A stretch of DNA of 64,000 nt from Schmidtea nova (GCA_044892505.1 CM097883.1:333870001-333934000); one strand, 5' to 3'; shown: positions 26,880 through 27,476, numbered from the stretch's first letter. The notes: generated by a model from the letters alone, not told the origin. Program-made: numbers and translations.

Positions 26880-27476
26880 TTATTTCTCGATCAAATCACT
26901 AAAAATTCCTGCTGGAGGAAATATTTCGTCCAATAGCTCTTTCTCGGTTAATTTGTGCAGATCGTCGATTTGGTTCTGCATCCGTTGAGCGAACAGCTTT
27001 CTTTGTCGACGCCTTTTCTGCCCTATGCGCTTACGTTTCTGATGGATATTGGCAGTTTGGGCGGCAGGATTGATCGATGTTTCTTGCTCGTTACTAATTT
27101 CGATGAGGCCGTCGACGTCTGTGCCTATCGAAGTTCCCAGTTTTTTCTCCGCCGTCCATTCTTGGTAAGTTACCGGTCGGATTTGATCCCGCAGCTCCCG
27201 TTCGATGTAGGAAGCGGTTACCGAATGCAAGCATTTACGAAGCTCGATTTTCGTAGCTTCCCATTCCATTTTGTAGTCGTCCGCTGTTCGTTGTGCGCGC
27301 TCGGTTTTGCCAATCTGCTCCTTCATTCGAGCAGGAGCGAACCAGCTTTTACGCAAATAGGCAGTTTGCGCTTCGGACTTGGCTAATCTTTCCTTGAGGA
27401 GACCCAACTCCTTGTCCTGGGCTCTCCGGATCCGCCACATCTTTTCGATCTCTCTTTGGGCGGCTTCTAAATTCAT
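26880..27476 (-). CDS. ORF B, 198 aa, unknown function (predicted coiled N-half, Arg/Lys-rich helix, amphipathic C-terminal helix)
   Basis: Intact ATG-to-stop ORF; homologues in copies D and F. Confidence 0.8.
   Translation of the reverse strand: MNLEAAQREIEKMWRIRRAQDKELGLLKERLAKSEAQTAYLRKSWFAPARMKEQIGKTERAQRTADDYKMEWEATKIELRKCLHSVTASYIERELRDQIRPVTYQEWTAEKKLGTSIGTDVDGLIEISNEQETSINPAAQTANIHQKRKRIGQKRRRQRKLFAQRMQNQIDDLHKLTEKELLDEIFPPAGIFSDLIEK

Follow-up and report, generated by a model that had tools for sequence, protein, structure and literature searches.

ORF B is probably an accessory gene that is carried together with a second gene, ORF A, inside an LTR of 2.6–3.1 kb, and the units E and D are probably solo copies of this LTR. 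We put the probability of this reading at about 75%. The original prediction had missed this position of ORF B, which seems to lie within the LTR and not next to it. The surprise lies in a coding giant LTR more than in the Arg-rich tract of ORF B. All features are located in the window, that is, the whole 64-kb stretch of DNA that was analyzed (Table 1).

Table 1. Coordinates of the features discussed, given as positions in the window
Feature	Position	Strand	Description
gag-PR-RT-RNase H	8455..10986	+	Broken Ty3/gypsy, probably CsRn1-like; DUF7041, C-x2-H-x9-C-x3-C; integrase absent
ORF A remnant, copy F	10989..11126	+	Middle part; starts 2 nt after pol homology ends
ORF B, copy F	11829..12400	+	Pieces 11829-12119 and 12056-12400; frame change with stop near 12120
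3' LTR end of F	12538..13206	+	Motif present twice via local duplication; ends CCCAACA at 13206
Unit D	22160..24766	+	2607 bp, solo-LTR-like, collinear with E
ORF A, copy D	23240..23726	+	Frame break near start; in-frame stop 23529-23531
ORF B, copy D	23956..24407	+	Frame break near start, shorter linker; tblastn-related piece 23988-24407
piggyBac-like transposase remnant, left half	26272..26466	+	Frame ends at first TSD copy
Unit E	26467..29583	-	3117 bp, solo-LTR-like, carries ORF A and ORF B
3' LTR motif with its hairpin (internal loop U/CAY)	26615..26694	-	Five copies in the window
ORF B, copy E	26880..27476	-	198 aa, ATG to TAA, intact
C-terminal amphipathic helix, residues 161-187	26916..26996	-	Predicted; conserved T-E and L-L-x-x-I
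Basic tract, residues 147-160	26997..27038	-	Candidate NLS or nucleic-acid-binding helix
N-terminal region, residues 1-89	27210..27476	-	Predicted parallel coiled-coil homodimer, kink at W/L-F-A/T-P motif
Splice-acceptor-like tract	27477..27500	-	AG ends at 27479, 2 nt before ORF B ATG
ORF A, copy E	27634..28113	-	Intact, 159 aa, basic, Trp-rich; acceptor AG ends at 28137
Splice-donor-like site	28673..28681	-	GT at 28678; D counterpart 23031
Dyad and CCAAT/TATA-like block	29190..29250	-	D counterpart 22512-22570; blastn E=3e-7
piggyBac-like transposase remnant, right half	29588..29680	+	Frame resumes after second TSD copy
Unit H	48148..48473	-	326 bp, solo-LTR-like relative with 3' motif and hairpin, without ORFs

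ORF B and ORF A as Conserved Genes

The minus-strand frame of ORF B was present as originally described, and all of the motifs quoted for it were found in copies E, D, and F. Of these three copies in the 64-kb window, only E holds an intact ORF B; in copy D, the frame of the likely start codon (23956) differs from that of the remaining ORF. When ORF B of copy E was searched against the window by tblastn, the N-terminal half of F matched at 40% over 70 aa (E = 5e-16), D at 29% over 173 columns (E = 3e-12), and the C-terminal half of F at 37% over 68 (E = 0.13). Pairwise protein scores reached 145, 136, and 104 against shuffle means of 29–34 (maxima 51–56, 300 shuffles). Four of the five pairs scored above all 300 shuffles, and D with the N-terminal half of F scored 55, below its shuffle maximum of 58 (300 shuffles).

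The codon positions of the five ORF B pairs showed 54–69% identity at the second position and 28–41% at the third. pS ranged from 0.67 to 1.04 and pN from 0.38 to 0.47, the latter being biased downward by a codon alignment that was guided by the protein. Amino-acid identity of 34–44% was found alongside saturated synonymous sites. Because amino acids were kept while synonymous sites became saturated, selection acts on the protein, and the codon-position pattern agrees with the protein-level selection suggested earlier. This combination would be hard to get otherwise. A frame as long as ORF B stayed open in 1 of 20,000 base shuffles, and together with the codon-position pattern and the saturated synonymous sites this contradicts a chance ORF. 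ORF B is almost certainly a real gene. The N-terminal helical half, too, belongs to its best-conserved part. An internal repeat between the two halves was considered and rejected, with 1959 of 2000 shuffles scoring equally well.

ORF A showed the same codon pattern as ORF B in four of five pairs, the fifth spanning only 14 codons. No homologue of ORF A was found among 205 candidates; the best Atlas score was 0.80, and the PDB search gave one match at E 0.17. The AlphaFold2 model of ORF A had a pLDDT of 38.5. Any role proposed below for ORF B could instead be held by ORF A.

Units E and D as Candidate Solo LTRs

Units E and D end in TGTTGGG...CCCAGCA and TGTTGAG...GCCAACA, respectively. Animal Metaviridae LTRs have the consensus ends TGTTRNR...YNYAACA, according to the accessible part of PMC3601003; both 5' ends fit it, and both 3' ends deviate by one mismatch. 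Each unit is flanked by an exact 4-bp TSD, AATT for E (26463–26466 and 29584–29587) and TTAT for D. A piggyBac-like transposase frame is split exactly at the TSD of unit E, which fixes the ends of E. This remnant of the transposase N-terminus matched DDE_Tnp_1_7 at E = 0.011, below the curated cut-off.

The landmarks of the two units follow the same order, namely dyad block, donor, ORF A, ORF B, and 3' motif. In E and D, the dyad/TATA-like block lies at +371 and +386, the donor-like site near +903 and +869, and the 3' motif 228 and 218 nt from the LTR 3' end, respectively. Neither gag/pol nor a terminal direct repeat was found inside either unit. Recombination between two LTRs leaves a single unit with LTR-type 5' and 3' ends inside a TSD. 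Units E and D bear the signature of solo LTRs because they combine LTR-type ends, TSDs, and matching landmarks with the absence of gag/pol and terminal direct repeats.

Copy F, Unit H, and the Alternative Architecture

Copy F brings the cassette next to a gag-pol region. Its gag contains C-F-Y-H-x9-C-Q-Q-P-C at 9040–9180 and matched DUF7041 at E = 9e-7. The CsRn1 clade is characterized by a CX2HX9CX3C gag and 4-bp TSDs, as far as the available text of PMC2582038 describes it. The D/E/F family is in our reading Ty3/gypsy and probably CsRn1-like, and the 4-bp TSDs were seen in D and E (both without pol) and not in F. Compared with its pol relatives, F loses pol homology after 10986, and its ORF A remnant begins at 10989. 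The junction is that of a deletion that removed the integrase, and the pol-to-cassette link in F rests on this one junction. ORF A or ORF B fused to pol was found in none of the 70 pol relatives (best E 0.36); 68 of these relatives are without a name, and none is labelled as a retroelement clade.

A 5' LTR matching D or E was not found for F, and no TSD was found around F. A candidate 5' end at 7581 mirrors the F 3' end, without a TSD and without similarity to the D/E 5' region, and no D/E-type promoter block was found after it (ranks 327 and 1868 of 3110 windows). The region 7581–8450 comprises the TGTTGGG end, a 125-aa minus-strand ORF (7813–8190), and an AT-rich palindromic stretch before gag; it gave no family match. 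A local duplication is present at 12096–13192 (12096–12325/12749–12978 and 12538–12753/12977–13192, 99–100% identical). Its junctions show short microhomologies, and it may be a recent rearrangement or an assembly artefact. The 216-nt repeats at 12538 and 12977 were considered as a 5'/3' LTR pair and rejected, as they represent this local duplication of the LTR end plus part of ORF B.

Unit H has the same kind of ends as D and E, and its flanks share only three of four TSD bases. Its 326 bp compare with a mean of 330 bp for the CsRN1 training LTRs in the portion of PMC3601003 that is available.

The arrangement can also be explained if D and E are non-autonomous deletion derivatives or a Ginger-like DNA transposon, with ORF A and ORF B lying between pol and the 3' end or belonging to an element unrelated to the pol of F. 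We regard this as rather unlikely. No copy with paired LTRs around gag-pol was seen in the 64-kb window, the cassette directly follows pol in F, and the candidate 5' end of F has neither a TSD nor similarity to the D/E 5' region, all of which this explanation would accommodate. It would also gain from chance, as a SIR with a TSD should arise at random 0.13 (E) and 0.09 (D) times in 6 kb; one of seven (E) and one of six (D) candidate 5' ends had a TSD, and a SIR plus TSD match taken singly is weak. However, TSDs around single LTR-type ends occur in both units with matching offsets, as left by LTR–LTR recombination, and E splits the transposase frame exactly at the TSD. Unit H, moreover, shares these ends and the motif, and its length is normal for a CsRN1 LTR. 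Ginger was rejected for D and E, which have inverted ends of only ~7 bp and contain no transposase, whereas Ginger requires TIRs of 40–270 bp and an integrase-like transposase according to the accessible text of PMC2836005. The solo-LTR reading of E and D remains our preferred one.

Other Elements in the Window

The window consists of AT-rich animal DNA, in which the introns of a host gene are full of transposon remnants. This gene is liprin-alpha-like, lies at 17639–62301 on the plus strand, exceeds 45 kb, and gave LIP-1 domain matches at E 3e-13 and 6e-13. Window-wide tblastx yielded mostly AT-rich noise among the matches listed. A Penelope-like element occupies 36967–39926; it combines an RT frame of 732 codons (RVT_1 E=1.2e-7) with a GIY-YIG-like tail recognized by eye and contains a perfect inverted repeat of 830 nt. 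At 4700–6570, inspection by eye showed degenerate fragments of a Polinton/Maverick-like ATPase and integrase, and a 363-aa Tc5/pogo-like DDE_1 transposase ORF lies at 41281–42372 (plus strand, E=2e-32). On the minus strand, 59500–60920 contains a second, unrelated gypsy-like gag (CCHC) with a protease remnant. hAT-like and mariner-like transposase remnants were noted by eye at 44758–46662, 4089–4382, 19165–19458, and 49100–50300.

Expression Signals and Candidate Binding Sites

A pyrimidine tract with YAG precedes the ORF B ATG in all three copies, at 2 nt in E, 2 nt in D, and 0 nt in F. Across the window, 46 of 2138 ATGs have an acceptor within 3 nt. The acceptors of ORF A lie 23 and 14 nt from its ATG, and 217 of 2138 ATGs have one within 25 nt. 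In all five ORF A/B copies, an AATAAA signal overlaps the stop or lies no more than 80 nt beyond it, against a background of 21%; the distance thresholds for both acceptors and AATAAA were chosen after the sites had been viewed. Between the TATA-like block and the donor, E has 7 and D has 12 upstream ATGs, so a simple model of a spliced mRNA would require a different start site or first exon. The acceptors may alternatively serve spliced-leader addition, if the host uses spliced leaders.

The 5' block contains words that we take to be CCAAT-like and TATA-like and a dyad with z-scores of -4.9 (E) and -2.5 (D), whose inner stems differ between the two units. The 3' motif was found in D, E, H, and twice in F through the local duplication. 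Five copies were reached in 0 of 100 shuffles, with search patterns derived from those same copies. The associated hairpin has z-scores of -4.7 in E and -6.6 in H, both with a GCAA loop; it is weak in F (z -0.6), and D favors another fold (z +0.06). Unit H contains the strongest form of this conserved hairpin. In wider stretches around the motif, the sense strand outscored the antisense strand in E and H, but not in D or F. For the eight core pairs, 90% of cells pair compared with 29–53% when slid, the structure having been drawn from the same sequences. Covariation in the hairpin was not significant among the four sequences, being reached by 41 of 500 shuffles, and none of 14 Rfam matches fell on the 3' motif. 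The leader of unit E (28140–28930, minus strand) contains further hairpins, with z -5.1 near 28923 and -3.1 near 28443, for which no clear counterpart was found in D.

Predicted Structure of ORF B

The AlphaFold2 model of ORF B, built with four aligned sequences, had a mean pLDDT of 72 and a pTM of only 0.30. It predicts helices at residues 3–44, 48–98, and 137–185 and disorder at residues 104–136. Helix 137–185 is continuous in the model, so that the basic tract runs into the amphipathic helix. The two-copy model scored 0.54 and passed the mark of the method, and the best of three controls scored 0.00. At least 74% of contacts agreed between runs, with pLDDT of at least 61, and the modeled interface comprises residues 1–89 in a parallel, in-register arrangement. 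In calibration with microbial structures, 21 of 30 solved pairs passed this mark, compared with 0 of 23 single chains; with eukaryotic structures, 17 of 29 pairs did so, compared with 0 of 30 single chains. The eukaryotic passes included 7 of 16 animal pairs and only 1 of 7 pairs without an older solved relative. The model supports but does not show dimerization through the N-terminal coiled coil, because coiled coils are common among solved structures; the pass may reflect resemblance to these. As modeled, ORF B would be a coiled-coil stalk with two flexible arms, each ending in a basic and then a short amphipathic helix.

The basic helix could be an NLS or a nucleic-acid-binding element. The best 15-mer of the tract contains 10 K/R in E, 9 in F, and only 6 in D, so the conservation reported earlier held for E and F and was weak in D. 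No TM segment was found in any ORF B piece (maximum Kyte-Doolittle 19-mer 0.34–0.78), and no signal peptide was seen by eye. In this respect, the early judgment that ORF B is not Env-like was borne out. The protein contains one Cys in 198 aa.

Family Assignment of ORF B

Searches for relatives of ORF B were negative throughout. None of 126 candidates (lengths 108–347) was a homologue at E<=0.01, and a profile search against 1.84 billion representatives gave none at E<=0.001. The ESM Atlas gave a best value of 0.87 with low recognition, PHROGs gave no match, and Pfam gave no family at E<=1 for copy E or for its C-terminal 61 aa. None of the matches from the PDB sequence search, two at E 0.18–0.24 and 17 at E>=0.25, was to a related protein. 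Foldseek, queried with the ORF B model, found 0 of 20 viral and 0 of 2 PDB matches at E<=0.001. The best VIA-align hit (Z 7.1, rmsd 8.5, 128 aligned) reflected generic helices only, and its best 50 rows for ORF B were without Rev, Tat, or bZIP. These results do not establish a new fold. ORF A and ORF B each constitute a new protein family, because neither has detectable relatives in the libraries searched.

The original prediction had proposed a Rev/Tat-like or nucleic-acid-binding accessory protein. An LTR-retroelement accessory gene with a basic helix was retained from this proposal, and membership in Rev, Tat, or Rex was not. Pfam and PDB contain Rev, Rex, and Tat entries, and no sequence match between these and ORF B was found in either search. 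No canonical NES class (1a–d, 2, 3, and two reversed) occupies one common position in E, D, and F; the spacing common to the three copies fits class 3 only when Ala is allowed. With its single Cys, ORF B lacks the Cys-rich zinc-binding region of Tat, and Tat identity was rejected. Its dominant feature is a predicted coiled coil of ~89 residues, and to our knowledge Rev and Tat have no coiled coil of such length.

Pfam bZIP appeared below threshold in F (E=0.0084, score 16.6 vs cut-off 27.6) and D (E=0.023, 15.2 vs 22.3) and was absent in E. The bZIP basic motif, N-x7-R/K, is present in F only, and ORF B offers about two heptads, one residue out of register, where a zipper needs at least four. 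bZIP membership was rejected on these grounds. CERV membership was also rejected, as ORF B is small, all-helical, and has one Cys, whereas CERV is a large three-domain protein with an invariant Cys loop. An Env/FAST-like fusogen was rejected for lack of a hydrophobic segment. By these tests, ORF B is not a member of the Rev/Rex, Tat, bZIP, Env, or CERV families. These failed tests make it less likely that ORF B is a Rev; they do not lower the chance that it works like one.

Possible Role of ORF B

We lean slightly toward ORF B being a nuclear regulator of the element. Genome-length RNA must pass internal acceptors and poly(A) signals regardless of the end at which the main promoter lies, because the LTR contains two of each. 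A factor made from short spliced RNA that favors long RNA would solve this passage problem. By analogy, the basic, TM-less, and probably dimeric ORF B would be a natural candidate for such a factor, a suggestion that we hold at less than even odds. In this scheme, ORF B would be made from a short spliced, polyadenylated LTR transcript and would dimerize by its N-terminal coiled coil, carrying two basic helices on flexible arms. It would enter the nucleus via the basic tract and bind the element's own RNA; the candidate site is the conserved hairpin, which lies within the last ~200 nt of the LTR. Its C-terminal amphipathic helix would recruit a host factor. Genome-length RNA would thereby escape the two acceptors of the cassette and the two AATAAA signals in the LTR. 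ORF B would then act like Rev/Rex or Cer1 CERV without kinship to them. Such an RNA-directed switch is a tentative proposal. It draws on the selection on ORF B, the LTR-type ends and TSDs, the acceptors and AATAAA signals near the ORFs, the structural models, the hairpin in E and H, and the precedent of CERV. Against it stand the weak basic tract of D, the lack of a shared canonical NES class, the behavior of the hairpin in F and D, its nonsignificant covariation, and its occurrence in H, which has no ORF B, as well as the upstream ATGs and the failure to find a paired-LTR copy or a D/E-like 5' LTR of F in the window. If the whole scheme were real, this animal Ty3/gypsy lineage would have built a two-gene regulatory module into an LTR of ~3 kb and equipped it with a promoter of its own, alternative acceptors, and poly(A) sites. 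Each solo LTR that recombination produced would be a self-contained expression unit for two novel proteins, one of them a dimeric basic-arm regulator recognizing an LTR hairpin. The whole would form a convergent complex-retrovirus switch, supplied in trans by solo LTRs to short-LTR relatives such as H. We consider this full version improbable.

Other roles would fit parts of the same evidence. ORF B could be a DNA-binding transactivator or anti-silencing factor for the LTR, using a bZIP-like basic helix, with the dyad preceding the TATA-like box as the candidate site. The single predicted helix that joins the basic tract to the amphipathic helix, the weak bZIP matches in F and D, and a dyad kept in D and E with different inner stems are in keeping with this role, and a dimer suits a dyad site. 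Yet the bZIP scores stay below their cut-offs and are absent in E, the Asn of N-x7-R occurs in one of three copies, the zipper is short and out of register, and the confident dimer interface (residues 1–89) is far from the basic tract; we judge DNA binding to be quite unlikely. Somewhat unlikely as well, in our view, is that the basic tract merely serves as an NLS or nucleolar signal and that ORF B, alone or together with ORF A, works as a coiled-coil adaptor or decoy for a host protein (silencing, piRNA, nuclear import) or for the element's own particle. The charge of the tract is kept while its sequence drifts and weakens in D, and the best-conserved residues form hydrophobic helix faces and caps in both halves, as an adaptor might require. 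Coiled-coil ORF3 types whose function is not known occur in rotifer LTR elements, and nuclear accessory proteins in plant elements, by the available accounts (PMC5408684 and PMC7264820, respectively). An adaptor alone would leave the passage of genome-length RNA unexplained, although ORF A or host factors could provide for it, and the Arg density in E and F exceeds that of a minimal NLS. A fusogen of the Env or FAST type could be suspected from the position of ORF B 3' of pol in F and from the polybasic tract that occurs in FAST proteins. The maximum 19-mer hydrophobicity of 0.78 opposes a fusogen, and the codon pattern, saturated synonymous sites, and shuffle result oppose a chance ORF, which leaves either one highly improbable. 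The RNA-directed nuclear regulator remains the role that we favor, with the adaptor and the DNA-binding activator as close rivals.

Comparison with Known Systems

Solo LTRs are usually regarded as non-coding leftovers. If the present ones carry intact genes under selection, what remains after LTR removal is still translated into protein, and pipelines whose annotation presumes LTRs to be short and non-coding would overlook this family. Among the listed entries of the open literature, and in passages of PMC6431247, PMC11410931, PMC8532177, PMC12801592, and PMC2836005, we found no description of an animal Ty3/gypsy LTR that contains two entire genes, which is weak evidence of absence.

Retroviral genes are known in or overlapping the LTR, such as MMTV sag and HIV nef, and foamy virus tas/bet uses an internal promoter. 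ORF A and ORF B resemble these cases in having LTR coding sequence and possibly a second promoter for accessory genes. They differ in being two complete ORFs wholly within an animal Ty3/gypsy LTR of ~3 kb, and the proteins are unrelated.

Extra ORFs are also described for bdelloid LTR elements, with several ORF3 types including coiled-coil proteins (PMC5408684, available text), and for plant Grande GENE23 and Retand aORFs, for which a Rev/Tat-like role was proposed (PMC7264820, available text). According to the same portions of these sources, such ORFs are, like ORF A and ORF B, family-specific and conserved without homologues; some are nuclear and some have their own promoter. They lie between pol and the 3' LTR and are often antisense in plants, whereas ORF A and ORF B are in the sense orientation and are retained in solo LTRs.

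The CsRn1 clade offers further likeness through the CX2HX9CX3C gag of F, the 4-bp TSDs, the TG...CA ends, and the length of H, as judged from the accessible parts of PMC2582038 and PMC3601003. In contrast to the usual CsRn1-type LTRs, D and E are about 8–10 times longer and coding. Burro, a giant gypsy element of planarians, is likewise an oversized invertebrate gypsy with accessory ORFs; by its description in the available text, however, it has a CCHC gag, a polyprotein of ~4,900 aa, and its extra coding capacity in the internal region (PMC6431247). The gag of F is of a short CHCC type, which does not fit Burro, and this identity was rejected.

Rev, Rex, Rec, and Tat are small, basic proteins without TM segments and with an Arg-rich helix, as is ORF B, which is also probably made from spliced RNA. 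Its element contains a candidate structured LTR RNA, comparable to RxRE, RcRE, or TAR. ORF B differs in showing no sequence match to these proteins, no Tat Cys domain (because it has only one Cys), and no canonical NES class common to its three copies; it has a long N-terminal coiled coil, and its host element is Ty3/gypsy and not a retrovirus. Rev forms a helical hairpin around its Arg-rich motif; in this region, the ORF B model (pTM 0.30, four aligned sequences) tentatively gives one helix (137–185).

Rev is made from short spliced RNA and favors long RNA, and Cer1 CERV of C. elegans, a nuclear protein made from spliced mRNA, is needed for export of unspliced RNA (both from the available portion of PMC10309623). 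In that account, CERV resembles ORF B as an accessory protein of an invertebrate LTR retrotransposon, with a spliced mRNA, a short basic NLS candidate, and predicted multimerization. It is large, with three domains, a Cys loop, and a leucine-zipper region common with GAG, whereas ORF B has 198 aa, is all-helical in the model, has one Cys, and is apparently LTR-encoded. With its candidate protein and its candidate RNA and DNA sites, the intact 3-kb copy E makes it possible to test directly whether Rev/Tat-like control evolved more than once in invertebrate LTR retrotransposons; CERV is the single case found in the literature examined.
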